Below are positions 16,629 through 43,594 of a stretch of 64,000 bases of DNA, piece by piece; position 1 is the stretch's first letter; each line of letters begins with the position of its first letter. The stretch lies in the NCBI GenBank assembly GCA_964468795.1, contig CAYXWL010000001.1:232246-296245 (forward strand), given 5' to 3'. The translations under genes were made by a program, and so were the position numbers. The notes beneath the pieces were generated by a model, which made no database searches, had not been told where the DNA came from, and was given only the letters and a program-made list of their open reading frames with translations. The stretch is from an uncultured Candidatus Saccharibacteria bacterium. GTDB lineage: Bacteria; Patescibacteriota; Minisyncoccia; Phycocordibacterales; DATDWN01.

Positions 16629-17651
16629 ATGCAAATAAAATCCCAATTTGACCACAGAGGAAAAACTTACAAAGTTACATATACTGATGGAGTTCCGGAA
16701 GTAGAAAATCTTGAAACTCAAGATGGTGTTCATTCGTATTGTTTCTATGGAGATAAATTAGTTATCGTTGGACATGGAGCAGACAACAATTGGACTCCTC
16801 CAGGTGGAGCTATCGAAAAAGGAGAAACTTACACTGAAGCAGCTATACGAGAAATCAAGGAAGAATCAAATATGAAAGTCCTTCATATTGAATGTATTGG
16901 ATATCAAGATGTAGAAGTATCATACGGTACTGGAATGGTTAGACAATTCAGAATGATGGCTATTGTTAAACCATATGGAGAATTTGAAAAAGACCCAGAT
17001 GGAGATATTTTGGAGATAAAGCTGATTGATCCAAAAGATTACAAAGAATATATAAAATGGGGAGAGATCGGAGATTACTTAATGAAAAGAGCCTTGGAGA
17101 TGAAGGAGTATAACTTTGAAGATGTCACCAAAGATGCAGTTGTAAATCCAATTGAACTAGCAAAAAGATTTGCGAGTAAAAAGTTTGCAGAGATACAAAC
17201 AGGAAATCACTTTCTAGATGTATATAGAATTCTTAAAGAAGAGTTTGGGGTTAATGATGAAGAAGTTTTAATCGCTGGACTATTGCACGATACACTTGAA
17301 GATACTTCTGCTACATATGATCAAATTGAAAGAATTTTTGGGAAGAGAGTTGCGGATTTAGTAGAGGAAGTGTCTCATCCAAAAAATTACAATAATGAAC
17401 AGAAGAAAGAATACTATGAGAAACTAAAGCATATTTCTGATGGAGGGAAAATGATAAAACTAGCTGATTTTAAATCACACTTAGTTAATTTCATCGGAGC
17501 TTTTACAGGAAAAAACAATTTGAAGAAATTTACATACACAGAGTACACAGATAATATTCTTAGTTTTCTAGAAAATTATCCTGAATCAGCAGCAAAAAAT
17601 ACTGTATATAATTTATCAAAAGAGTTAGAAGGTCATATTTTAGGAAAATAG
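16629..17651 (+). CDS. Nudix hydrolase fused to an HD (SpoT/RelA-type) phosphohydrolase domain
   Basis: Nudix box GGAIEKGETYTEAAIREIKEESN. C-terminal AGLLHDTLEDT HD motif. Confidence 0.75.
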   Translation: MQIKSQFDHRGKTYKVTYTDGVPEVENLETQDGVHSYCFYGDKLVIVGHGADNNWTPPGGAIEKGETYTEAAIREIKEESNMKVLHIECIGYQDVEVSYGTGMVRQFRMMAIVKPYGEFEKDPDGDILEIKLIDPKDYKEYIKWGEIGDYLMKRALEMKEYNFEDVTKDAVVNPIELAKRFASKKFAEIQTGNHFLDVYRILKEEFGVNDEEVLIAGLLHDTLEDTSATYDQIERIFGKRVADLVEEVSHPKNYNNEQKKEYYEKLKHISDGGKMIKLADFKSHLVNFIGAFTGKNNLKKFTYTEYTDNILSFLENYPESAAKNTVYNLSKELEGHILGK

Positions 17652-17652
17652 T

Positions 17653-18414
17653 ATGAAATTAATTACCTTAAATGCGTGGGGTGGAAAAATATATGAACCA
17701 CTCATTTCTTTCCTTAAGGAACACTCAAAAGATGTGGATATTTTTTGCTTTCAAGATGTATTATTCGGGTCAAAACCAGAGTTTACTCCAATTCAAAAAG
17801 GAAGAGTAAACTTATTTTCAGAAATTGAAAATATTTTAAGTGATTTTAATTCATTTATCTTTAGAGATAAAAATGAGTCATTTATTCATGGCGAGATGTT
17901 GCCTCTCGAGGTGGGGTGCGGGCAAGCTATTTTTGTAAGAAAAAATTTAAAAGTTCTAGATAACGGCGCATTTCGTGCTTTAGACAGAGAAACAGACGAT
18001 GACATTGCTCCTGGAAGATGCCAGTGGATTAAAATTAAATTACATAACGAAGAAAACCTGGTTGTTATGAATTTACATGGAATGTGGCAAAAAGGTTCTC
18101 AAAAGAAAGACACTCCAGAAAGAATAGTACAATCACAAAAAGTTAAGGAGTTTTTCTCTCAACACAATTCCAAGCAAATAATATGTGGTGATTTTAATAT
18201 GGTAAAAGATGGGAATGCAATGAGTATGTTGGAAGAAGGAATGGTAAATTTAGTGAAAGAATACGGCATTCAATCAACCCGAAGCAGCCATTACCCAAAA
18301 GAAGAAAAATTTGCAGACTATATACTCGTATCAAAAGATATAAAAGTAAATGATTTTAAAGTTTTGCAGAATGAGGTATCAGACCATTTGCCTTTATTTG
18401 TGGATTTTGAATAA
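17653..18414 (+). CDS. endonuclease/exonuclease/phosphatase (EEP) family protein
   Basis: MKLITLNAWGG .. CFQD .. GDFN .. SDHLPL motif series. Confidence 0.7.
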   Translation: MKLITLNAWGGKIYEPLISFLKEHSKDVDIFCFQDVLFGSKPEFTPIQKGRVNLFSEIENILSDFNSFIFRDKNESFIHGEMLPLEVGCGQAIFVRKNLKVLDNGAFRALDRETDDDIAPGRCQWIKIKLHNEENLVVMNLHGMWQKGSQKKDTPERIVQSQKVKEFFSQHNSKQIICGDFNMVKDGNAMSMLEEGMVNLVKEYGIQSTRSSHYPKEEKFADYILVSKDIKVNDFKVLQNEVSDHLPLFVDFE

Positions 18415-18420
18415 AGAAAA

Positions 18421-18442
18421 GCACCACGATTTTTTGTGGTGC
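18421..18442 (-). terminator. hairpin terminator at the AT/GC composition boundary
   Basis: GCACCACgattttttGTGGTGC, followed by a T-run on the minus strand. Ends the minus-strand GC-rich operon. Confidence 0.55.
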
Positions 18443-18575
18443 TGGAAGTGGTGTGCAGTCCAGATCTTTAGCATTGCGAGCGTTGGCCACCTCCTTGGTT
18501 TTCAACTTAGCCGCTCGCGTAGCGATCTGGTTACGGCTTGTGCCGTCATCCGTTCCCACTTAGGGAACGACTCAA

Positions 18576-18695
18576 TTAGTCCTCTGGCCTCTGCACATGC
18601 CTGGACCGCGATATGTTGGGAACTCCATGCAACATGAGTGCGCACTCCGCCTTTGTTACAGCGCCCTCCGCTAGAGGGTAACGTGCCGTCTTCAT
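18576..18695 (-). CDS. candidate 39-aa ORF (last gene of the GC-rich operon)
   Basis: Own translation MKTARYPLAEGAVTKAECALMLHGVPNISRSRHVQRPED, placed just after IR copy a. Below the track cutoff. Confidence 0.25.
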   Translation of the reverse strand: MKTARYPLAEGAVTKAECALMLHGVPNISRSRHVQRPED

Positions 18696-18703
18696 GGTGG
18701 AGC

Positions 18704-18745
18704 TCCCATCAAAAGTTTCAAATTATTTTAAAATCTTTGATGGGA
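18704..18745 (-). repeat. IR family copy a: TCCCATCAAA - AT-rich spacer - TTTGATGGGA
   Basis: 10-bp perfect inverted arms read directly; gene orientation is minus. Confidence 0.7.
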
Positions 18746-18885
18746 GGGCGAACAAATTTCGTTGCTCACCCATTGCACTGCGGTCTCGCCCTGCCTTATC
18801 AGCAAACGAAGTGTCTAGCTTCGTTGCTCGCTTAAGTCATTTCTGACATCAGCGAATTCGCGCAGGATCCCCGCTCAAGTTTGTG

Positions 18886-19386
18886 CTAACTCAGTCGACC
18901 CAATAAGGTTTGCCCTGTCGATACCAATCTGGCGTATGACCACCACTGACTGTAATCAGTGAGGATTTCCATACGCCAATGGCTGTCGACTCTGCCGGGA
19001 ATGGGCGGACACAATTCGATGAACGGAGATTGCTGATTGCGCAACTCCTCGTCCCTCGAAACGCGCCTCGCACACACCGGCAAAGTGACACCACTCGCAT
19101 CTTTGACGAATGCGACATTGGCACTGAGCCTCGACGAAAGTTTCCCACTGCATACTCGACCGTCTTTCTTTGGCGCAAGTAAGTTGAGAAAACTGTCGAT
19201 CGAGATAGGGCGATACCTCGTCAGGATCCGCTGCGCGTCGACGTATGTCCCGAGGTCCCAGAGAAGCAAATTGCTCTTCTCTTCGTTCCGGCGCACTTCC
19301 ATATTGCTAAAGTGACGCTCGAAAGTCTCACAAACCTCGAGGACGTTGACACTCACAAGGCGATCCCGAACGATGTAGTTTTCCAT
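18886..19386 (-). CDS. hypothetical protein (166 aa)
   Basis: Start set at MENYIVRDRL, preceded by AAAGGAGGG. GC-rich module. Confidence 0.55.
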   Translation of the reverse strand: MENYIVRDRLVSVNVLEVCETFERHFSNMEVRRNEEKSNLLLWDLGTYVDAQRILTRYRPISIDSFLNLLAPKKDGRVCSGKLSSRLSANVAFVKDASGVTLPVCARRVSRDEELRNQQSPFIELCPPIPGRVDSHWRMEILTDYSQWWSYARLVSTGQTLLGRLS

Positions 19387-19420
19387 GAGCCCTCCTTTGG
19401 GCAAAATACAGACTATTTTT

Positions 19421-19534
19421 AAAGAACTTTGGAACAATTTTGTTCCTTCAGAATACTTAACCTAGGTTAAACCCTCTGAAGGAAGTCCGAGGATATATGA
19501 CTTCCTCGGACGATACCGGGCTGACGCGCCGATA
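19421..19534 (-). promoter_or_regulatory. conserved structured leader, copy B (the homolog is at 26174..26288 on the plus strand)
   Basis: ~75 nt nearly identical to copy A: ATCGGCGCGTCAGCCCGgTATCGTCCGAGGAAGTCATATATCCTCGGACTTCCTTCAGAG. Covarying hairpins and GTTCTTT follow. Confidence 0.5.
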
Positions 19535-19544
19535 GACGTTATTG

Positions 19545-20093
19545 CTAGACTTCTCCCGAGAGATCGTTCGGATCTTCGTGGCCGTCCCACTCGGTGTCGA
19601 CATCTTCTCGCTTCCACTTGAGCCGATGGAGGACGTACTCGATCCTGCCCCTGGATTGTTTGGACAGCTTCCACTTCAACCAGCCGAACTCCTTCTCGAG
19701 CTGAGCAAGATTCTCGATCTGCCAACGCTTCAGGCAAGAAACGAGTCTTGGACTGAAGATGGATTTCGTCGAGATCTCCTCCCGAGGCCGATCTTTCAGC
19801 GAGTCGACGATGGCGTTGAAAGCCATCTCGAACTTCTGTTGCTCTACGGGCGGAGGCGGGAGTGGCTTCGGCGGTTTGCCGGCGTTCTTTCGTGCGGTGC
19901 GAACCTTACGAACTGCCTTGCGGGCAATCTGCATGATTCGCTCCTTCGTGACGGCAAACTCCTGGCCGATGTCGTTGTAGCTCATCCCTTGCGCGAGTAA
20001 GGTCAGGATTCTCTCCTCGCGGGGAGTCGTCCTCATGCGCTCGACTGGTGTGATCTCCGAAATGACAATGCCGAACAAAGTTTTTTTCTGCAA
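19545..20093 (-). CDS. sigma70 region-4-like HTH protein with an extra C-terminal domain
   Basis: TTG start after GGAG. TPREERILTLLAQGMSYNDIGQEFAVTKERIMQIARKAVRKV resembles sigma region 4. FSPRLVSCLKRWQIENLAQL weakly resembles an RpoA-CTD helix-hairpin-helix. Confidence 0.55.
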   Translation of the reverse strand: MQKKTLFGIVISEITPVERMRTTPREERILTLLAQGMSYNDIGQEFAVTKERIMQIARKAVRKVRTARKNAGKPPKPLPPPPVEQQKFEMAFNAIVDSLKDRPREEISTKSIFSPRLVSCLKRWQIENLAQLEKEFGWLKWKLSKQSRGRIEYVLHRLKWKREDVDTEWDGHEDPNDLSGEV

Positions 20094-20128
20094 TGTTTTT
20101 CTCCAAAGAACAAAGGGAAATTATTTTC

Positions 20129-20165
20129 CCGTCAAAACTCTGAAATAAATTCAAAACTTTGACGG
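20129..20165 (-). repeat. IR family copy f (variant arms CCGTCAAA / TTTGACGG)
   Basis: Preceded on the minus strand by hairpin GCCGAACttcgGTTCGGC. Followed by GGGAAAataaTTTCCC, GTTCTTT, GGAG and the start of 19545..20093. Confidence 0.6.
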
Positions 20166-20421
20166 AAGCCGAACCGAAGTTCGGCAAGTGTGATGGTAAA
20201 CTCGGAGTAGTTGTAGCCACTCTTTGCTCTTTAGGTAACTTGCGCCCTTAGCGAATACCCTGATTCCATCGCCAGACAGAATCACGGGAGAGTGGTTAAA
20301 GCTACAACTTCTAACCAACTACTCGCTCAATATGTATCACGGGCCATCACGCTCCACGACACGTCGCAACATTTTTCCTGCTCAAAAAATTCTACGATGT
20401 ACCGTGGAACTTTACAAAGAA

Positions 20422-20474
20422 CTTCTGTTTCGTCGTTTCCGACTCATCAGGTGAGACATACATCTCACGACAGG
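20422..20474 (-). ncRNA. hammerhead ribozyme, type III (HHR1)
   Basis: Minus strand: cCUGUC|GUGAGA-UGUAUG-UCUCAC-CUGAUGA-GUCG-GAAA-CGAC-GAAAC-AG. Full catalytic core, GUC cleavage site. Confidence 0.8.
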
Positions 20475-20558
20475 TGCCTTGGGTGCTAATCAAGACAAAT
20501 GATTTTTGGCCCTACTGCCCCTTGCGGGTACTCGGACCTTCTGTTGCCAAGCCGGTCA

Positions 20559-20939
20559 TTACTCCGGCTCCGTCTCCTCAAGCTGCTCTTCAGCAAGCTC
20601 GAGTTTTCTGCAGGCCTCTTCGAAGGCAACCAAGGCAGGAATGTTTCCCTTGCCCAGCTCTGGCAGCACTACGATTGGGAAGATTTCATCTCCCGTCTCG
20701 AGGTACAACCGAGAACCTTCTCCGTCGTGATGGGCGGCCCGCGAGAACTGGCGATGGCAGGAACGGCACTCGAAATAATCCAAGTCGTTCACTTCCACCG
20801 TGCAAGCTCCACAGGACGGACACCCATAACAAAGGAGTCGGCGTTGCGATTCTTCGTAGGCGAGCATTGGACACGAAGACAAGTGCTCGGACACTGACTC
20901 GTGGCAGTGTCGGCACTTTACCGTCAGTCGCAGTCTCAT
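20559..20939 (-). CDS. Cys-rich zinc-ribbon-like protein (126 aa)
   Basis: ATG at 20939, 5 nt after AGGAGG. CRHC..C..CYGCPSCGAC..CRSC motifs. Confidence 0.55.
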   Translation of the reverse strand: MRLRLTVKCRHCHESVSEHLSSCPMLAYEESQRRLLCYGCPSCGACTVEVNDLDYFECRSCHRQFSRAAHHDGEGSRLYLETGDEIFPIVVLPELGKGNIPALVAFEEACRKLELAEEQLEETEPE

Positions 20940-21315
20940 ACTCACCTCCTATTAAAGAACTTGAGACAAACCATTTGCCTCGTCATAATAATCAAAATCT
21001 TGATTTCTCTGACGAGACCCCGACTGATATTTTAGTCGGGATGTTGTGGTGGTGACTGTAAGCGATTGCAGTCACTTACAACCTTGAGATGTTCGGCGAA
21101 TTCCGAGCACCTCTTAGTGAATGTTTGGCTCCACCCGTATCCGAAATAGATACGGGAATCTGGCGCAAGCGCTGGGTGAGAATCTGCAACTCTCACGCTC
21201 TAAGCACCATTCACTCCCTCATGTATCATGGGCCACCACAGCTCCACGACACCTTGCACAACATTTTTTAGAAAAATTCTGTGCGAGATGTCGTGGATAG
21301 ATCAAAAGAACAGTT

Positions 21316-21366
21316 TCTGTTTCGTCCTTTCGGACTCTTCAGGGAGAATACACATTCTCCGACAGA
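21316..21366 (-). ncRNA. hammerhead ribozyme, type III (HHR2)
   Basis: Minus strand: CUGUC|GGAGAA-UGUGUA-UUCUCC-CUGAAGA-GUCC-GAAA-GGAC-GAAAC-AGA. Only the variable N7 differs from the other copies. Begins 6 nt after the stop codon of 21373..21651. Confidence 0.8.
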
Positions 21367-21372
21367 GCCGGA

Positions 21373-21651
21373 CTAACGTGCCGGCAACGAATAATTTTTT
21401 CTTCTCCACCTCCAAGGTTCATTTGAACCGACTCGGAACACGTAGCGGCCACACCGTGAGGTGTACCAGCCACGCGACTCGTCGGCCTTCCGCATTTTTG
21501 TGCGGAAGAAGTTACGAAGGCGACTCACATCACGCGACGTGAGCGGGCGGCCCTTGAGGACCTTTGCCCAGCTGAAGTACCCGTCTTCACGAGTGATCTC
21601 CAGCAACCGACCACCGAACCGATACTGGCCTCTTGACCACTCGCTTCCCAT
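21373..21651 (-). CDS. hypothetical basic protein (92 aa)
   Basis: ATG preceded by CTAGGAGGTATC. R/W-rich. Confidence 0.45.
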   Translation of the reverse strand: MGSEWSRGQYRFGGRLLEITREDGYFSWAKVLKGRPLTSRDVSRLRNFFRTKMRKADESRGWYTSRCGRYVFRVGSNEPWRWRRKNYSLPAR

Positions 21652-22032
21652 GATACCTCCTAGTTTTGAAAGAATAGTGGGTGTTTGCAGGATCCTCTCT
21701 GACTTTAATAGTCCGTGGCTTATCCACAGCTATTTCCTAGTGGTAACTTACCCACAAGGTCGTCTTTGATTAATCACCGCTAACATTGCACACCCGCGCA
21801 ACGCCAAGATGCCGGCAAGCATCTGGTGGATCGGAGCAAAGTTGCCTGGCCTCAGTTCTGTACGATTGCAGCCACTTTGGACTGCAATCTACCTCTCAGG
21901 CTGCCATGCCTTCGAAACACAGAAGTGTACCTTTGGCTCTGCTCCTAACGAAGATCCATCGGACTCCGGAATTTACCAAACTATTTGTCGAGCAAATTCC
22001 GAAATCCGTGAACCATTTTATTTTAAAGAACT

Positions 22033-22083
22033 TCTGTTTCGTCCTTTCGGACTCATCAGGCGAGACACTCATCTCACGACAGA
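22033..22083 (-). ncRNA. hammerhead ribozyme, type III (HHR3)
   Basis: Minus strand: UCUGUC|GUGAGA-UGAGUG-UCUCGC-CUGAUGA-GUCC-GAAA-GGAC-GAAAC-AGA. 5-bp open stem III. Confidence 0.85.
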
Positions 22084-22133
22084 CCAGGATGACGCTCTGG
22101 TAGACGTTTAGGAGATTCTGTTGCCGAGCTCTC

Positions 22134-22352
22134 CTAGTGCTCCGAGGCTGAGTCAGTGAGGATCAGCGTGGTAACCTCGGCGTAAAACGCCTCGACCTCT
22201 GGTCCACCGAACAGGGGTTTGTAAGACCCGTCGGAGTTCCGAGGCCAGATGCCTATGATGGCATCGAGCGTCGCCTTCGAGAGGTTGAATCTCTCGAAAG
22301 TCTTCCGCGCGAGTTCCTCCGAGATCCCCGTGATCTGATAGACTCTTTTCAT
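22134..22352 (-). CDS. hypothetical protein (72 aa)
   Basis: Start MKRVYQITGISEELARK after GAGGAGAGTGAC. Confidence 0.45.
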   Translation of the reverse strand: MKRVYQITGISEELARKTFERFNLSKATLDAIIGIWPRNSDGSYKPLFGGPEVEAFYAEVTTLILTDSASEH

Positions 22353-22388
22353 GTCACTCTCCTCAAAGAACTCGGAACGAACCATTCG

Positions 22389-22460
22389 TCCCATCAAAGA
22401 AATCAAGCTTTATTATTTTCTTGAAAGTAAACTTTCAAGTTGTTAATTGCTTTGATGGGA
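22389..22460 (-). repeat. IR family copy b: TCCCATCAAAG - 50-nt AT-rich spacer - CTTTGATGGGA
   Basis: 11-bp perfect arms. The spacer contains hairpin CTTGAAAgtttacTTTCAAG. Confidence 0.7.
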
Positions 22461-22566
22461 GGGCAAACGATGTTTTGTCGCTCACCCATGTTTACCCATG
22501 CTTTTACGCGGAAGGATTTTTCCACAACTTCGGTGCCTTGGCCGAAGGTTGACGCACCCAGTCGGA

Positions 22567-22743
22567 TTACTTCTTCCGATAGCCAGGCTTCCCGCCACAG
22601 GGAACGGAAACTGCTTTCACAGATTCCCGTTTTGCGGTTTTCAGCCTGCCGTCGTAGAAGTAACCAGCCCGAGCGAGGATCTTGTTGGCTTGCGCCTCCA
22701 AAGTCCTCTGATGGTTTGTGGCCACCATTGTGATTGTTGTCAT
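22567..22743 (-). CDS. hypothetical protein (58 aa)
   Basis: MTTITMVATNHQRTLEAQ.. preceded by GAGGAGGATC. First ORF after a ~370-nt leader. Confidence 0.4.
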   Translation of the reverse strand: MTTITMVATNHQRTLEAQANKILARAGYFYDGRLKTAKRESVKAVSVPCGGKPGYRKK

Positions 22744-23116
22744 GATCCTCCTCAGGATTGACTGGTTGTTAATGTAAAGAACATCGCGGGGGATGAGTTC
22801 GGGCTGGGGCCTAGTACACCGTGCAGCAACACGGGACTTCAGGCGAAAAGTGACCCCATATTGGTTTGCCTTACGCGAGATTCTTGCTCGCGCCTGGCTC
22901 CGCACACTTCCCTTGCTGAAGGGGAAGACTCCCTATGCGGTATTGAATGCCACCCTACACACCCCCACCTCAAAAGACTTGTATCTTCTGAAGCGGAGGA
23001 ATGTGTCCTCCATTTGTAAAGAAATGCACTTTGAAGTTAATTTTGATTGCGGGTCCGTGATATTTATCTGGACGGTTGCCATTCGCTAATAAAACTTAAC
23101 TTCAAGGTACACTGGT

Positions 23117-23145
23117 AGTATATACTAAACGTATATTTTTGTCAA
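23117..23145 (-). promoter_or_regulatory. sigma70-type promoter for the minus-strand GC-rich operon
   Basis: Minus strand TTGACA - 17 nt - TATACT. Confidence 0.55.
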
Positions 23146-23280
23146 GCAGTTTTGACATTTTCTTTTTATAAATCTAAAAATAGCTATAAATATAGCCATT
23201 ATATAGAATATAGATTTAATTTAACCTGACTAAACTAGTATTAAATTGACATACTAAATAAATAATTTTGTTATTTATAT

Positions 23281-23309
23281 TTGACAAATAAAATGAATGG
23301 GTATATACT
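23281..23309 (+). promoter_or_regulatory. sigma70-type promoter for the candidate ncRNA
   Basis: TTGACA (23281-86) - 17 nt - TATACT (23304-09). Confidence 0.6.
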
Positions 23310-23314
23310 TATAG

Positions 23315-23658
23315 GCAGACGAGTACCCAGGGTGTTCTTGGGGAAAGGAGGGTTCCATGCACGACTAGTGCGGGCTGGGGAACCGGGGGTTGTTAACCCC
23401 CGGTGTGGCCTCCAGTTTGGCTAGTCATAGATTGTGGAGGAAGCAAAAGTGGACGACTAGCACATAGGTGGTTCCAGTTCCATGCGTCCGACCACCAGAT
23501 AGTCAGAGGACGCGAGACAGATCATCTTCGTTCAGTTCAAGGTGGAAAATCCACCAGACAAAGAGAGAAGTGTGATTCCGTCAATCGTTCCCGGCGATTA
23601 GTCTTCGGGAACAACATGCCGTGGCGACAACTTACCGTCGCCACGGCATTTCTTATTT
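23315..23658 (+). ncRNA. candidate novel structured RNA (~340 nt) with its own promoter and intrinsic terminator
   Basis: GC-rich island between a consensus promoter and terminator ATGCCGTGGCGACaacttaccGTCGCCACGGCAT+TTTCTTATTT. Many helices, e.g. CCGGGGGUUguuAACCCCCGG and GGUGGAaaaUCCACC. Confidence 0.5.
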
Positions 23659-24393
23659 ATGATCAAAGATATATTTAATTAGGCTTTTGAGAGTGTCTGC
23701 AAACTCTTTGCTTTTTATTAAAATACCAGATGGTCTCTTTCCCAGAATAGATATTCTCACTTGGTCACCATAAACAGTAATATCGCTACTTAAAGGATAC
23801 TTCTCTGAATTTATTTTTAGCCTCTCTCCCATTTCATCTGATGGTTTATCTATATTTTTTGAAGTGTATATAGATCTAGATTTAATTCCTCTTGAAATCC
23901 TACGATCTTTTAGTCTACTTGTTTCTTTATCATCGAAAATATCCTTAACTAGATCTAAAGGATAAACTATATAAACAGGTTCATCAGGAAGTATTTTTAT
24001 AAAAGTATCATCATTTGAGCTAAGCACCCCTTCTTTACCATCAAAAAACTGAACCATTGGTTTTTCCCCTTGTTCTCTTTGGATACCTTTTAATTGTGGG
24101 ACGATAATATCTAGACCTTTTTTATTCTCTTCTAATAAGTGGATCTGTCTTTCTACGAACAAGCCAAGTTTTTCTGGAGGTTCAGCAATATAAAAAGTCT
24201 TTTTTCCAATATTTGATTCACTAACTAAACCCTTCTTCTGTAAAGATTCCAGGATCACGTATGCAGTAGGACGCTTTATCGTTGCTTTTTCGGCAATTTC
24301 AGTTACAAGAGCTTTATCAAAGGAAAGAAGAGCTAAATAAACTGCTGCTTCCTTATCACTAAGCCCAATATCTTTAAGGTATTTTTCAAACAT
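23653..24393 (-). CDS. TrmB-family transcriptional regulator
   Basis: N-terminal LGLSDKEAAVYLALLSFDKALVTEIAEKATIKRPTAYVILESLQKKGLV winged HTH. AT-rich like the host. Confidence 0.75.
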   Translation of the reverse strand: MFEKYLKDIGLSDKEAAVYLALLSFDKALVTEIAEKATIKRPTAYVILESLQKKGLVSESNIGKKTFYIAEPPEKLGLFVERQIHLLEENKKGLDIIVPQLKGIQREQGEKPMVQFFDGKEGVLSSNDDTFIKILPDEPVYIVYPLDLVKDIFDDKETSRLKDRRISRGIKSRSIYTSKNIDKPSDEMGERLKINSEKYPLSSDITVYGDQVRISILGKRPSGILIKSKEFADTLKSLIKYIFDHK

Positions 24394-24481
24394 ATGATTG
24401 TGATGATTTTGATTATTATAACATAGATTTTTTATTTTTTAAAAACAAAATCCGCCCTCCAACGGATTTCGTTGTGGGCGG

Positions 24482-24979
24482 TTAGGATTTACGATACTTC
24501 TCCTCCATTTCTCGGATAGCTTCCTCCAGAGTTCCGAGTCCCATTGCATGTCTTCTCTCATCAACATGCTCAGGATCCTCGATTTCTTTCGGAATAAACT
24601 TTCCGTCGACTTCAGTAAATTGTGTACCGAAGATTTGTGGACGATCCGTGTTCACTCTCACACGATCTGCGAGGTATGCCAGATCTTCTTTGATGATTTC
24701 CTCGAGAGGGCAATCCATCATAGAGTGTAGGCACAACTGTTGGAACGTGGGGTCATGGTCAGCGTGTTGAACGATGAGCCATGCAGAATGTGATGCTTCT
24801 CTGCCCACCATAGAAATCGTAGGCCATCTGTGATGTAACCAGATCCTCATCATCTTCACAGTGTTCTGAAAATCAACTGTCTCATCCCAGAAATCAGGAT
24901 CAAGAAGATTCTTGGAGCGCATTTCCTGGTCAACACGCCCCATCTCAAGTAGCTGTTCTGCCAACTCAGGGAAGAGCAT
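24482..24979 (-). CDS. hypothetical protein (165 aa)
   Basis: ATG preceded by AAAAAGGAGGTCAC. GC-rich. Ends at terminator CCGCCC..GGGCGG+T-run. Confidence 0.55.
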   Translation of the reverse strand: MLFPELAEQLLEMGRVDQEMRSKNLLDPDFWDETVDFQNTVKMMRIWLHHRWPTISMVGREASHSAWLIVQHADHDPTFQQLCLHSMMDCPLEEIIKEDLAYLADRVRVNTDRPQIFGTQFTEVDGKFIPKEIEDPEHVDERRHAMGLGTLEEAIREMEEKYRKS

Positions 24980-24994
24980 GTGACCTCCTTTTTC

Positions 24995-25222
24995 TCACAC
25001 GGGTTGAGTCCATTCTTTCAGAACTCGCACAGTCTTGACCCAGCTTTTCTGATAGACAAGCGGATCATCACTTGGAGCGTCCACCAGAGCCTTGGCAATC
25101 ACTTCTGCTTTGGCGTCGTCTTCAGCTTCAAATGGGATGAACTTCCAACCTCCGCTGGTTAGCCATCTACTATTCGAAGCTGTGTAACGCATTTCTGCAT
25201 ACCAGACTTCGTATTTCGACAT
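24995..25222 (-). CDS. hypothetical protein (75 aa)
   Basis: Start MSKYEVWYAEMRY after AAACGGAGGTTTT. The track ORF was trimmed. Confidence 0.45.
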   Translation of the reverse strand: MSKYEVWYAEMRYTASNSRWLTSGGWKFIPFEAEDDAKAEVIAKALVDAPSDDPLVYQKSWVKTVRVLKEWTQPV

Positions 25223-25238
25223 AAAACCTCCGTTTCTA

Positions 25239-25284
25239 AATATACCATTTTGTGCTTGACAAGTCAAGTAAAGTATGCTAGGAT
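25239..25284. promoter_or_regulatory. back-to-back divergent promoters with adjacent -35 boxes that together form a palindrome
   Basis: Plus: TTGACA(25256-61)-17-TAGGAT. Minus: TTGACT(25267-62)-17-TATATT. The -35 boxes lie in CTTGACaaGTCAAG. Confidence 0.5.
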
Positions 25285-25353
25285 AGAGGTAGTAATTCCT
25301 GTATGTATGTACAGGTCGCCCGAGAAGGGTAGGACAGAAAAAGGATGTGTCGT

Positions 25354-25662
25354 ATGACGCAGAATGCATATGATTTGAAGAAGATCGTGAACGGTCCGAG
25401 CAAGATGGACCTCATGCTGGCGATGTTCGACAGCAGCTTCCCGAATCACCGTTCAGTTGTCTTCAACTTTGAGAATGAGGGAGCGAGCAACTTCAAAGCT
25501 AGTGCTCCCTGTCACATCTCGATGGTTGAGAAGGAAGACGGTTCTGGCGAAAGCTTTAACTTCGAAGGAACTCTCTCCTACGACAACTTCCGGACAGGTA
25601 AGAGGGTGCGTGGTTGCTATAACACCATGCGCCGGACTGGCTTCTTCCACTTCGTGCAGTAG
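25354..25662 (+). CDS. hypothetical protein (102 aa)
   Basis: MTQNAYDLKKIVNG.. after AAAAAGGA. Confidence 0.45.
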   Translation: MTQNAYDLKKIVNGPSKMDLMLAMFDSSFPNHRSVVFNFENEGASNFKASAPCHISMVEKEDGSGESFNFEGTLSYDNFRTGKRVRGCYNTMRRTGFFHFVQ

Positions 25663-25690
25663 TTCTTCTGGGCGAGTTGTTAACTCGCCC

Positions 25691-25730
25691 TCCCATCAAA
25701 GTAATTAAATTTTTGATTTCTTTGATGGGA
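25691..25730 (+). repeat. IR family copy c
   Basis: GGGCGAGTTgttAACTCGCCC hairpin, then TCCCATCAAAG-18 nt-CTTTGATGGGA. Confidence 0.7.
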
Positions 25731-25782
25731 CAATTTGGTCCCGATTTGTTCATTTCAATTTTCAGTGCCCAAAGGAGGGCCC

Positions 25783-26154
25783 ATGATCAACGAACGTGGT
25801 GAGTTTATTCGCGAGACGGCAGCTCCTTCTACCAAGGAAGTCACCACGAAGAATTACATGGTCAACGTGGTCACTTCATCGCTCAAGGATATTCTCAGTG
25901 GACACAACCTGATCAGCGACATGAACCAGGTTATCCTTCTCCAGTTCGGACCTTGCTCGGAAGAGGAAGGTGACGCTCTGGCGGATCGGATCAACGCGTG
26001 GGTTCGTGGGGGTGAAGGTCGTGGTCCTGCTGAGGCATTCCGGATTCTGGGACTGCACCAGAAGACGGGAGATGTGTGGGCGTCTTGCGACCCGATCCCG
26101 ACGGCTGGCATCTCGGAACTTCTCCAAAAGTTCCAGGTGAAAACCACTGTTTGA
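25783..26154 (+). CDS. hypothetical protein (123 aa)
   Basis: MINERGEFIRE.. after AAAGGAGGGCCC. Confidence 0.5.
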   Translation: MINERGEFIRETAAPSTKEVTTKNYMVNVVTSSLKDILSGHNLISDMNQVILLQFGPCSEEEGDALADRINAWVRGGEGRGPAEAFRILGLHQKTGDVWASCDPIPTAGISELLQKFQVKTTV

Positions 26155-26173
26155 TCAACATAAAGATCCGTCC

Positions 26174-26288
26174 ATCGGCGCGTCAGCCCGATATCGTCCG
26201 AGGAAGTCATATTATCCTCGGACTTCCTTCAGAGAGTTCAACTTTGTTTGAAAATTCTGAAGGAACGAATAGTTCGTTCTGGTTCTTT
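26174..26288 (+). promoter_or_regulatory. conserved structured leader, copy A
   Basis: ATCGGCGCGTCAGCCCGATATCGTCCGAGGAAGTCATATTATCCTCGGACTTCCTTCAGAG ... TTCTGAAGGAACGAAtagTTCGTTCtgGTTCTTT, then GGGGAGG and ATG at 26302. Confidence 0.5.
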
Positions 26289-26301
26289 GGGGAGGTACAC
26301 C

Positions 26302-26520
26302 ATGTTCGTCAGCAATACCACGATTTTTCACTGCCCGATGTTCGGGTGCGGTCACGAAAACGAACGTTCGAACCGCACGAAGCCGGAAGACATCGTTTGC
26401 GAAGGATGTCACGCACCTTGGTGGCCGATGGAACTCGGTTTCATTGGAAATGATCCGAAAGAAAACATCGAGTTCGCACGGACTCATGATCGGAAAGGAA
26501 ATCTTCGTGAGCTGGCGTAA
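26302..26520 (+). CDS. zinc-ribbon-like small protein (72 aa)
   Basis: MFVSNTTIFHCPMFGCGHENE..CEGCHAPWW. Confidence 0.45.
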   Translation: MFVSNTTIFHCPMFGCGHENERSNRTKPEDIVCEGCHAPWWPMELGFIGNDPKENIEFARTHDRKGNLRELA

Positions 26521-26550
26521 TTCTTCTGGGCGAACGTAATTTGTTCGCCC

Positions 26551-39777: not shown

Positions 39778-39805
39778 AAAAATATTTTGCTTTTATTTAT
39801 AAATG

Positions 39806-39879
39806 TGCGCCTGCCTGGACTCGAACCAGGGACCCCAGAGGTATAAGCTCTGTGCTCTAACCAACTGAGCTACAGGCGC
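39806..39879 (-). tRNA. tRNA-Ile with anticodon UAU
   Basis: GCGCCUG-UA-GCUC..GAGC-A-CAGAG-CUUAUAC-CUCUG-..CCUGG-UUCGAGU-CCAGG-CAGGCGC-A. No encoded CCA. Confidence 0.8.
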
Positions 39880-43146: not shown

Positions 43147-43533
43147 GGGGATGACAGGTTTTGACATAAGGACGACATTGATTCGTGCAATGCGGAGCTT
43201 CGATAACTCCTGAAACTGTCGAAAACAATAAGTGTAAAAAACTTATCTAAGGGCATTGCGTCTCCTTTTGGAAACGCATTCGCTTTCTCACCAGCACTAG
43301 CATAAGCTAACTCGGTAAGACGGTCATTTCCATGATACCTCTATATGGAAAATGATTGATATAAAACGAGGTTAGGATAAAAGACTGTTCCGACTCTTGT
43401 CCGAAAAATAGGAACTCGATCACAATGTATTTTGTTTGTTCCAAGCATTGTGGTTTAACACACTAAACAATCTACGCACTGTAGAAACGCTTCAATTCTC
43501 TTTATGGACGTGGTTTCGATACCACCATCTCCA
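43147..43533 (+). ncRNA. ssrA: tmRNA (ssrA)
   Basis: 5' GGGGATGACAGGTTTTGAC. 3' tRNA-like GGACGTGGTTTCGATACCACCATCTCCAC. Tag frame ..GCATTCGCTTTCTCACCAGCACTAGCATAA (..AFAFSPALA*). Confidence 0.85.
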
Positions 43534-43594
43534 CAAAAAAACAGAACGCCATTTATGGCATTCATCAAAAAACTCCCGTTCGGGAGTTTTTTGA

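Follow-up and report, generated by a model that had tools for sequence, protein, structure and literature searches.

A small-gene array with hammerhead ribozymes and a recurrent hairpin module in an uncultured Saccharibacteria bacterium

Background

In prophage regions of bacteria, as Perreault et al. (2011) described, single genes can be flanked by several hammerhead ribozymes, and three such arrangements cleaved in vitro, during transcription of native polycistronic RNAs (PMC3088659). The long transcripts were proposed to be processed into single-gene mRNAs; circular or spliced products were thought possible, though none were detected. The role of bacterial hammerheads has been open since then, and a direct comparative handle on it is offered by the locus analysed here, which lies in a stretch of 64,000 nucleotides (hereafter the window, to which coordinates refer) from contig CAYXWL010000001.1 of an uncultured Candidatus Saccharibacteria bacterium. 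The locus, which we call island A, is a minus-strand array of small genes with type III hammerheads in three of its spacers and a different conserved hairpin element, hereafter the module, in these and other spacers. An earlier reading of the same DNA (the original prediction) took it for a self-processing array that might produce circular RNAs. Because hammerheads flanking single genes were published in 2011 (PMC3088659), this central idea is of a known kind; the new part is the setting, a regulator-linked array family with a hairpin module. In our judgement the balance of probability tips slightly towards island A being a regulated array of accessory small-gene cassettes, the transcript of which would be divided into single-gene RNAs.

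Like the published hammerhead clusters, island A has several hammerheads within a few kilobases, between small genes of varying identity on one transcript. It differs from them in lying in an AT-rich chromosome, probably of Patescibacteria type, and apparently outside a prophage, in that the usual boundary element is another hairpin module, and in its link to a TrmB-like regulator and a divergent structured RNA. A Patescibacteria-like host is suggested by composition, type IV pilus genes, a diversity-generating retroelement and the fact that related contigs come from groundwater. In the early operon of phage T7, RNase III sites in every spacer yield single-gene mRNAs with stabilising terminal hairpins. 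One promoter, a long polycistronic RNA and conserved hairpins between the genes are common to that operon and to island A, but the stem of the module, unlike an RNase III site, is conserved in sequence with a fixed G·U pair and is not an internal-loop duplex, and three boundaries here use a protein-independent ribozyme. As in integron arrays, co-oriented small and mostly orphan genes stand between conserved imperfect hairpins behind one upstream promoter, composition is unlike that of the host, and cassette order is shuffled among relatives. However, neither the arrays nor their immediate surroundings contain an IntI integrase, R''/L''/L'/R' boxes are missing, and the flanking motif is GTTCTTY rather than GTTRRRY; moreover, the hairpin, unlike attC, is part of the 5' untranslated region, its spacing to the start codon is fixed, and its wobble pairs fit the mRNA strand. 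The Correia elements of Neisseria and the ERIC elements of enterobacteria are structured, co-transcribed repeats with direct-repeat flanks, scattered genome-wide, whose hairpins are nuclease targets and alter mRNA stability. The module, in contrast, is confined to GC-rich arrays: its nine copies in the window lie in island A (five) and in a second array, island B (four), with none elsewhere in the 64 kb. Finally, retrozymes and viroid-like circular RNAs are eukaryotic, mostly non-coding and retrotransposed, and their circles are proven (PMC4918200, PMC7761336). There too, direct-oriented type III hammerheads delimit units of below to about 1 kb, and an identical stem III would allow cut ends to re-pair, but the units here are bacterial, each codes for a protein, and circles made from them are speculative.

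A single transcription unit of small genes

Island A (18420-23145, minus strand) forms a single compositional unit, with a G+C content of 0.50-0.53 against 0.32-0.37 just outside it on either side, which agrees with the GC-rich island and AT-rich edges originally reported. The array promoter, TTGACA-17-TATACT (23145->23117, minus), had been called consensus; it matches at 11 of 12 positions and is thus near-consensus, and promoters of the same type (TTGACA-16/17-TATACT) head the arrays of two of the metagenomic loci used for comparison, L098 and L026. The leader of about 370 nucleotides (nt) claimed behind it measures 373 nt (22744..23116, minus) and is structured (fold z = -4.7); it falls inside a stretch of 1705 nt whose overall identity to strain L141 is 93%. 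At the other end, where a hairpin had been placed at 18421-42, an intrinsic terminator is present (18443-18420, minus), with an 8-bp stem followed by the T-run TTTTCTTTATT. One promoter and one terminator bracket a predicted transcript of about 4.7 kb. The spacers, described earlier as 160-480 nt long and filled with hairpins, are 158-482 nt long and far more folded than shuffled sequence: on the sense strand z ranges from -7.3 to -9.3 relative to dinucleotide shuffles, compared with -2.1 and -4.4 for the antisense strands of two spacers and 0.0 for a host gene nearby. Promoter, leader, six real or plausible small genes, three hammerheads and terminator are one minus-strand transcription unit.

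All seven open reading frames (ORFs) listed in the original prediction were found exactly where they had been placed, and six are real or plausible genes, the seventh, of 39 aa, being non-coding. ORF1 (58 aa; 22743-22567, minus) opens the array behind a Shine-Dalgarno sequence, and its homolog in L098, at 59% identity, likewise comes first after the promoter. ORF2 (72 aa; 22352-22134, minus), for which there is no comparator, is a plausible gene with a Shine-Dalgarno sequence and a module directly upstream. ORF3 (92 aa; 21651-21373, minus) is retained as a full-length frame in L150 at 87% amino-acid identity, with a weak codon-position signal (9/9/14). ORF4 (126 aa; 20939-20559, minus) is the zinc-ribbon protein, with four CxxC pairs and two weak zinc-finger/zinc-ribbon matches in Pfam; its homologs fall into six clusters at 51-94% identity, and comparison with L142 gives codon-position differences of 26/15/48. 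ORF5 (182 aa, TTG start; 20093-19545, minus) combines a sigma-70 region-4-like helix-turn-helix at residues 23-68 with a helical C-terminal domain, and the resemblance to sigma region 4 noted earlier is borne out both by Pfam (Sigma70_r4, E = 1.7e-7) and by a match in the PDB to RpoD region 4. A homolog with 79% identity gives a codon-position pattern of 28/18/63. ORF6 (166 aa; 19386-18886, minus) is an orphan with homologs at 87%, 65% and 59% identity and a pattern of 15/10/42. Since third-position changes are in excess, ORF4, ORF5 and ORF6 are coding.

Pfam and PHROGs searches with 16 island proteins returned only the helix-turn-helix of ORF5 and the two weak Pfam matches of ORF4. The check by profiles and structure prediction that had been proposed thus recovers sigma region 4 in ORF5 and leaves the other products as orphans, the structure model of ORF6 being unusable (pLDDT 37). 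An assignment of the ORF5 C-terminus to the RNA polymerase alpha-CTD was considered and dropped, as it is unsupported by Pfam and all Foldseek matches against the PDB have E > 0.1. We note also that the coding sequence of ORF6 folds as strongly as the spacers (z = -7.5) despite its protein-gene substitution pattern; for ORF5, z = -1.9.

The helix-turn-helix of ORF5 also matches a phage sigma-factor family, phrog_351. Another reading of island A is as the remnant of a prophage or satellite early operon. Such an origin would fit the small orphan genes, the free-standing sigma region-4 domain, the serine recombinase (29426-30757) and diversity-generating retroelement nearby, and the fact that published hammerhead clusters are mostly in prophages (PMC3088659). 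Structural, replication and lysis genes are absent, however, and the ORF5 helix-turn-helix is the only PHROG match; island A has zero DNA similarity to 50,697 phage and 72,556 plasmid records; in IMG/VR the strict module pattern is not found and a looser pattern gives chance matches only; and arrays at other loci are flanked by housekeeping genes. We therefore regard a prophage remnant as improbable.

The seventh frame ('ORF7', 39 aa; 18695-18576, minus) does not stand as a gene. It has no Shine-Dalgarno sequence, it overlaps a conserved structured RNA, and in L008 a 1-nt indel stops the frame after seven codons although the DNA is still 88.6% identical over 254 nt; with the frame broken and the nucleotides conserved, it is RNA rather than a gene. 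The RNA in question is a 3'-terminal multi-stem element of 162 nt (18450..18611, minus), 81-89% identical in L008-L010 and L027, for which RNAalifold predicts 49 pairs, six with compensatory change, and which scores 192 bits with its covariance model, R2. It also stands at the end of the arrays of L008 and L027. A role as universal array end was rejected, as R2 matches only the window, L008 and L027. A separate conserved 3'-untranslated-region element, consisting of GCGGGGAUCCUGC, a variable hairpin and AAGGCAGGGCGAGACCGC, was seen downstream of ORF6 (18790-18880, minus), and again 3' of unrelated cassettes in L011 (740-830 and 1770-1800), L013 and L142.

Hammerhead ribozymes between the genes

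A search with the Rfam type III hammerhead model (RF00008; gathering score 48.5 bits) over 7 kb returned three matches, in the three spacers that had been said to begin with a hammerhead. HH1 (22085-22031, minus; 41.5 bits, E = 1.4e-6) is predicted to cut after C22078, 56 nt beyond the ORF2 stop codon; HH2 (21368-21314, minus; 44.4 bits) after C21361, 12 nt beyond that of ORF3; and HH3 (20476-20422, minus; 42.3 bits, E = 8e-7) after C20469, 90 nt beyond that of ORF4. The order HH1-ORF3-HH2-ORF4-HH3 lies on one strand, and the reported distances between cleavage sites, 717 nt (22078->21361) and 892 nt (21361->20469), were reproduced. E-values of about 2e-7 to 1e-6 place the three matches far from chance. 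In each, the core CUGA(U/A)GA ... GAAA and the GUC cleavage triplet are intact, the sole deviation being an A at the free position 7 of HH2. Each copy has its core surrounded by three helices, with loops closing stems I and II and with stem III open.

Covariation was assessed over four copies and 15 pairs, with the HH2 ortholog of L150 added to the three hammerheads of the window. Paired cells make up 98.3% of the total, against 38-55% in slid-column controls, and six of the 15 pairs change on both sides. L150, where the ORF4 protein is 94% identical, is the most direct comparison: its HH2 ortholog scores 42.2 bits, and stem II has gone from GUCC/GGAC to GUUC/GAAC, a double compensatory change. 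With the fold kept in this manner, self-processing is the natural reading, and we infer that the hammerheads cleave in vivo. In L013 a fifth copy, truncated by the contig end, precedes an ORF6 homolog. Covariation is seen in stems I and II, while stem III (CUGUC / GAAACAG) is identical in all copies.

A further observation concerns the motif GGCAACAGAA, found at 22115-22125 and 20538-20548 (minus), 50-90 nt upstream of HH1 and HH3. It duplicates the 3' strand of stem III (GAAACAGAA), with which it could compete for pairing to UCUGUC; hammerhead-free ORF4 homologs, in L142 (about 1322) and L148 (about 1606), are followed by the motif as well.

A hairpin module at the gene boundaries

The module consists, in order, of a variable GC-rich hairpin A, a hairpin B, an optional small hairpin C, the sequence GUUCUUU, a Shine-Dalgarno sequence and the start codon. 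Hairpin B has 18 bp with a near-invariant G·U pair and the consensus UCCCAUCAAAGUUUU - loop - AAAAUUUUGAUGGGA. In island A a module is present in every hammerhead-free spacer, and two of the three spacers with a hammerhead have one at their 3' end (M2 and M3). Scored with a covariance model, R1, the five copies, all on the minus strand, are M1 (22385..22486; 49.6 bits), which has an unusually long hairpin B loop; M2 (20974..21043; 32.2 bits, E = 2e-5), a divergent copy; M3 (20123..20193; 56.4 bits); M4 (19439..19510; 53.8 bits); and M5 (18700..18771; 67.4 bits), which stands before the 3' element instead of a gene. The modules are co-oriented with the ORFs and lie 20-60 nt before the start codon, and the genes that follow them code for unrelated small proteins of 50-240 aa.

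That the module is an RNA structure is indicated by 34 distinct copies of hairpin B, in which 96.6% of cells pair, compensatory change is seen at 10 of the 18 pairs and all copies but one (33/34) retain the G·U pair; none of 500 shuffles was as good. R1 scores the sense strand 20-40 bits above the antisense strand, and the U-G and G-U pairs are compatible only with the ORF-sense strand. Three other identities were considered and rejected: a sigma-70 promoter (TTGATG as -35, GTTCTT as -10), since the spacing varies from 3 to 22 nt; a degenerate hammerhead, since GAAA and core positions are missing on inspection by eye; and a dispersed MITE, since the module is restricted to the islands. Rfam 15 returned nothing at E <= 5 besides the hammerheads over 17500-24500, and nothing at E <= 1 for the module or the 3' element over the whole window.

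The hammerhead and the module occupy the same position, and at one junction they are swapped: the element before ORF6 or its homolog is a module in the window, L014 and L011, and a hammerhead with a leader in L013. The module probably has the function that the ribozyme performs without protein, and probably serves the hammerhead's purpose through a host nuclease or a binding protein; we would expect it to act in RNA processing or stability. Later classes of self-cleaving ribozyme were found by searching beside known ribozymes, which makes the module and the 3' element candidates for cleavage assays.

A TrmB-family regulator, a candidate operator and a divergent RNA

Directly upstream of the array lies a gene for a TrmB-family regulator of 246 aa (23653..24393, minus; Pfam TrmB, E = 5.9e-16). 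The -35 hexamer of the array promoter is overlapped by the palindrome TGTCAA-N6-TTGACA (TGTCAAAACTGCTTGACA; 23140..23157), which occurs once in the 64 kb against 0.01 expected by chance, and equivalent palindromes are present at the array promoters of L098 and L026. The palindrome is thus a candidate operator, probably that of the adjacent TrmB-like regulator, which we infer to bind it.

Between regulator and array, a structured transcript of about 335 nt is predicted to run divergently (23281..23650, plus; z = -7.2) from a promoter of its own (TTGACA-17-TATACT, 23281-23309, plus) to a terminator at 23616-23649. A comparison of 23250-23700 with Rfam at E <= 10 gave only weak chance matches that fall well short of the thresholds of their families; the best of them, to atoC RNA, has 21.4 bits where the cut-off is 50 (E = 0.21). 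L098 and L026 have RNAs in the equivalent position, each with a promoter of its own, and the whole layout, with a TrmB-family regulator of about 250 aa, terminator, divergent RNA, AT-rich control region, palindrome and array, is common to the window and these two loci. Across the three lineages the divergent RNAs are 220-340 nt long, have near-consensus promoters and are directed towards the regulator. Homology among them was considered, but past a short 5' motif they have diverged too far for alignment. This motif is an observation in its own right: in all three lineages the RNA starts with AGGAGG-N5-7-AUG-NNN-GAC-stop, that is, a three-codon M-x-D mini-ORF behind a strong Shine-Dalgarno sequence, with copies at 23345-23370 (plus) in the window (AUGCACGACUAG), at about 9300 (plus) in L026 (AUGGAGGACUAA) and at about 3590 (minus) in L098 (AUGUGGGACUAA). 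TrmB-family genes adjoin arrays in L026, L098 and L148, and in L148 the gene is divergently transcribed from the array.

Proposed division of the transcript into single-gene RNAs

The reading that we prefer would run as follows. A single sigma-70-type promoter would give one GC-rich, heavily folded transcript of about 4.7 kb, and the TrmB-like regulator would control the array through the palindrome over the -35 hexamer. An RNA element would mark every gene boundary, the module doing so in most arrays of the family and, in this lineage, a type III hammerhead with GUUCUUU and a long folded leader at three boundaries. Each hammerhead would cut 12-90 nt past the preceding stop codon, so that the upstream RNA would end in a 2',3'-cyclic phosphate and the downstream RNA would start with a 5'-OH and be capped by the compact fold of the ribozyme. 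The polycistronic precursor would in this way become single-gene RNAs whose stability and translation could be set individually. What the analysis establishes is the anatomy of the locus, the covariation, the conserved architecture and the coding status of the genes. Relative to the self-processing array first proposed, the single unit and the real hammerheads between real genes have held up; the module, island B, the regulator with its divergent RNA and the non-coding nature of 'ORF7' had been missed.

Several points count against this reading. All three hammerheads score under the Rfam gathering threshold (41.5-44.4 against 48.5 bits), so that their assignment rests on the intact core and the covariation. 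Stem III has only five pairs, all invariant, and remains unformed in the minimum free energy (MFE) folds of isolated 61-mers; by nearest-neighbour folding, the catalytic fold lies 1.8-4.8 kcal/mol above the MFE. Part of the covariation of the module could also come from a palindromic DNA site evolving symmetrically, a process that would not yield its strand-specific G·U pairs. The link of the arrays to a TrmB-like regulator is based on four loci, and the cassette proteins are orphans in Pfam and PHROGs.

The low scores, the weak stem III and the alternatives favoured by the MFE folds are also what one would expect if the hammerheads were inactive, or neutral passengers of a duplicated spacer, in an otherwise ordinary polycistronic mRNA, and the 91% identity of HH1 and HH3 is consistent with recent duplication. 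Under such neutrality it is difficult to account for a core that is unmutated in five of five copies (three in the window, that of L150 and the partial one of L013), or for compensatory changes that preserve stems I and II even between orthologs. We give little credence to inactive hammerheads for these reasons.

A different fate for the cleaved RNA was raised in the original prediction, namely that RtcB joins the ends of the 717-nt and 892-nt fragments to give circular single-gene mRNAs; reversal of the hammerhead reaction is a second conceivable route. The ends made by hammerheads have the right chemistry for RtcB. As all hammerheads here share stem III (CUGUC / GAAACAG), the 3' end left by one ribozyme could pair with the leftover 5' part of the previous one, which would place both ends side by side. 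The common stem III may, however, reflect only recent duplication; no RtcB gene was seen in the window, though none was searched for; and most arrays are hammerhead-free, so that circles cannot serve as a general mechanism. Circular or spliced products were looked for in the bacterial clusters that offer the closest parallel, and none were found (PMC3088659). Circular single-gene mRNAs are in our view very improbable.

The array family in metagenomes and signs of exchange among relatives

A pattern scan of metagenome contigs identified at least 26 loci whose modules proved genuine on inspection; at several of these they punctuate arrays of small, unrelated ORFs. Modules can be dense: L026 has five to seven of them within 3.4 kb and L027 four within 1.8 kb. 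Arrays of this kind are widespread in metagenomes from groundwater and sediment, and they carry orphan proteins that include a free-standing sigma region-4 domain. Against GTDB genomes, the strict module pattern returned only a chance match to a Geobacter terminator. A literature search on hammerheads in Patescibacteria, or on such arrays, found nothing relevant, and the family, with its module, 3' element, and regulator, divergent RNA and operator, appears to be undescribed in Rfam and the searchable literature.

Within this family the hammerheads look functional but are a local feature of the present lineage and its close relatives. A search of sixteen further loci with modules (67.6 kb) against all Rfam ribozyme classes found none. 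The three ORF4 homologs at 67%, 61% and 51% identity are hammerhead-free, a module preceding the first and last and a plain leader the one at 61%. As to the ORF-hammerhead-leader arrangement that was to be sought in metagenomes, L150 has a full-length ORF3 and the HH2 ortholog, and L013 has a hammerhead plus leader before its ORF6 homolog. Of the two kinds of conservation on which the original prediction had been staked, that of the ORFs is found, but the alternation of ORFs with ribozymes is lost beyond close relatives.

Other comparisons bear on how the cassettes come to be where they are. The order ORF5->ORF6 in the window is ORF6->ORF5 in L008. M4 and the 44 nt that extend it on the 5' side recur in island B at 95% identity (repeat I4), the two copies standing after unrelated genes. 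GTTCTTY often lies on both sides of a module, as direct repeats, and the arrays exceed their hosts in G+C by 10-15 points. We also observed an identical two-cassette mini-array in two chromosomal contexts, beside RuvA and a Mur ligase in one case and beside a tRNA and a PilM cluster in the other (L142, with repeats at 87-195 and 1518-1626; also L143-L147). It comprises promoter, module, a 100-aa gene, module, a 125-aa ORF4 homolog and terminator, and is edged by 109-nt inverted repeats of 93% identity, homology stopping exactly at the outer end of the right repeat. The mini-array looks like a non-autonomous mobile unit.

These features might be explained at the DNA level, with the module or its GTTCTTY flanks as a recombination site for integron-like exchange and the RNA fold secondary. 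The swapped order in L008, the shared variant I4 after unrelated genes, the frequent GTTCTTY on both sides, the mini-array with its inverted repeats, the absence of island B from the 93%-identical strain L141 and the elevated G+C all agree with such a system. Yet island A and its immediate flanks are free of integrase and transposase genes; the serine recombinase is 6.3 kb from the island A promoter, on the far side of island B. The flanks are direct repeats, not inverted R''/R' of the attC type, and GTTCTTY misfits GTTRRRY. The 3' element is joined straight to hairpin B, with no GTTCTTT between them. Strand-specific G·U pairs and a fixed distance to the start codon indicate RNA, and homologous recombination between repeated modules would shuffle cassettes equally well. 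A recombination site as the primary role of the module is, on this evidence, unlikely, and we retain the RNA-level reading.

In composition the arrays stand apart from all of the host flanks examined, and long inverted repeats bound at least one of them, so the arrays may be an unrecognised mobile pool of accessory genes in bacteria with very small genomes. A bolder proposal, to which we assign a low likelihood, is that they constitute a new exchangeable small-gene cassette system of ultra-small bacteria in which RNA elements insulate each cistron. The module would then either represent a new class of self-cleaving ribozyme or be recognised by an endoribonuclease dedicated to it, the 162-nt 3' element would be a similar candidate, and the units of hammerhead arrays might circularise.

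Island B and other features of the window

Island B (25256..27806, plus) is a second array, of five or six small ORFs without a hammerhead, bounded by a promoter at 25256-25284 and a terminator at 27777-27806. Its modules, all on the plus strand (25665-25734, 26198-26269, 26525-26594 and 27153-27224), score 49.6-75.4 bits with R1. By eye, its -35 hexamer lies inside another perfect palindrome, CTTGACAAGTCAAG (25255-25270, plus); as this differs from the palindrome of island A, island B may have an operator of its own. Island B and its neighbours (24440-28680) are missing from L141, where a homolog of the 229-aa gene at 28628-29317 of the window directly abuts trmB. The DUF6624 gene, a 75-aa gene, island B and two more ORFs are therefore a strain-variable insertion or deletion of 4.2 kb. 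Terminal inverted repeats of at least 24 nt were not found around island A or B; the best candidate, a 27-nt AT-rich match, reaches only 74% and was rejected.

The recombinase gene mentioned above (29426-30757, plus), 1.6 kb past island B, encodes a large serine recombinase with Resolvase, Recombinase and Zn_ribbon_recom domains and is CcrB/XisF-like. It is followed by the diversity-generating retroelement (30849-33719), in which a 118-nt inverted repeat, 86% identical, pairs a variable region (30855-30972) at the 3' end of a minus-strand, GC-rich gene (31661->30849) with an AAC-rich template region on the plus strand (32114-32231). As judged by eye, the differences between the two are all at template adenines. 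The reverse transcriptase (Pfam RVT_1) is split across two ORFs, 32629-33231 and 33171-33719. Further along, the window has a tRNA-Ile with the anticodon UAU, which is unusual for bacteria (39805-39879, minus), and a tmRNA (43147-43536, plus) with the tag peptide VKNLSKGIASPFGNAFAFSPALA.

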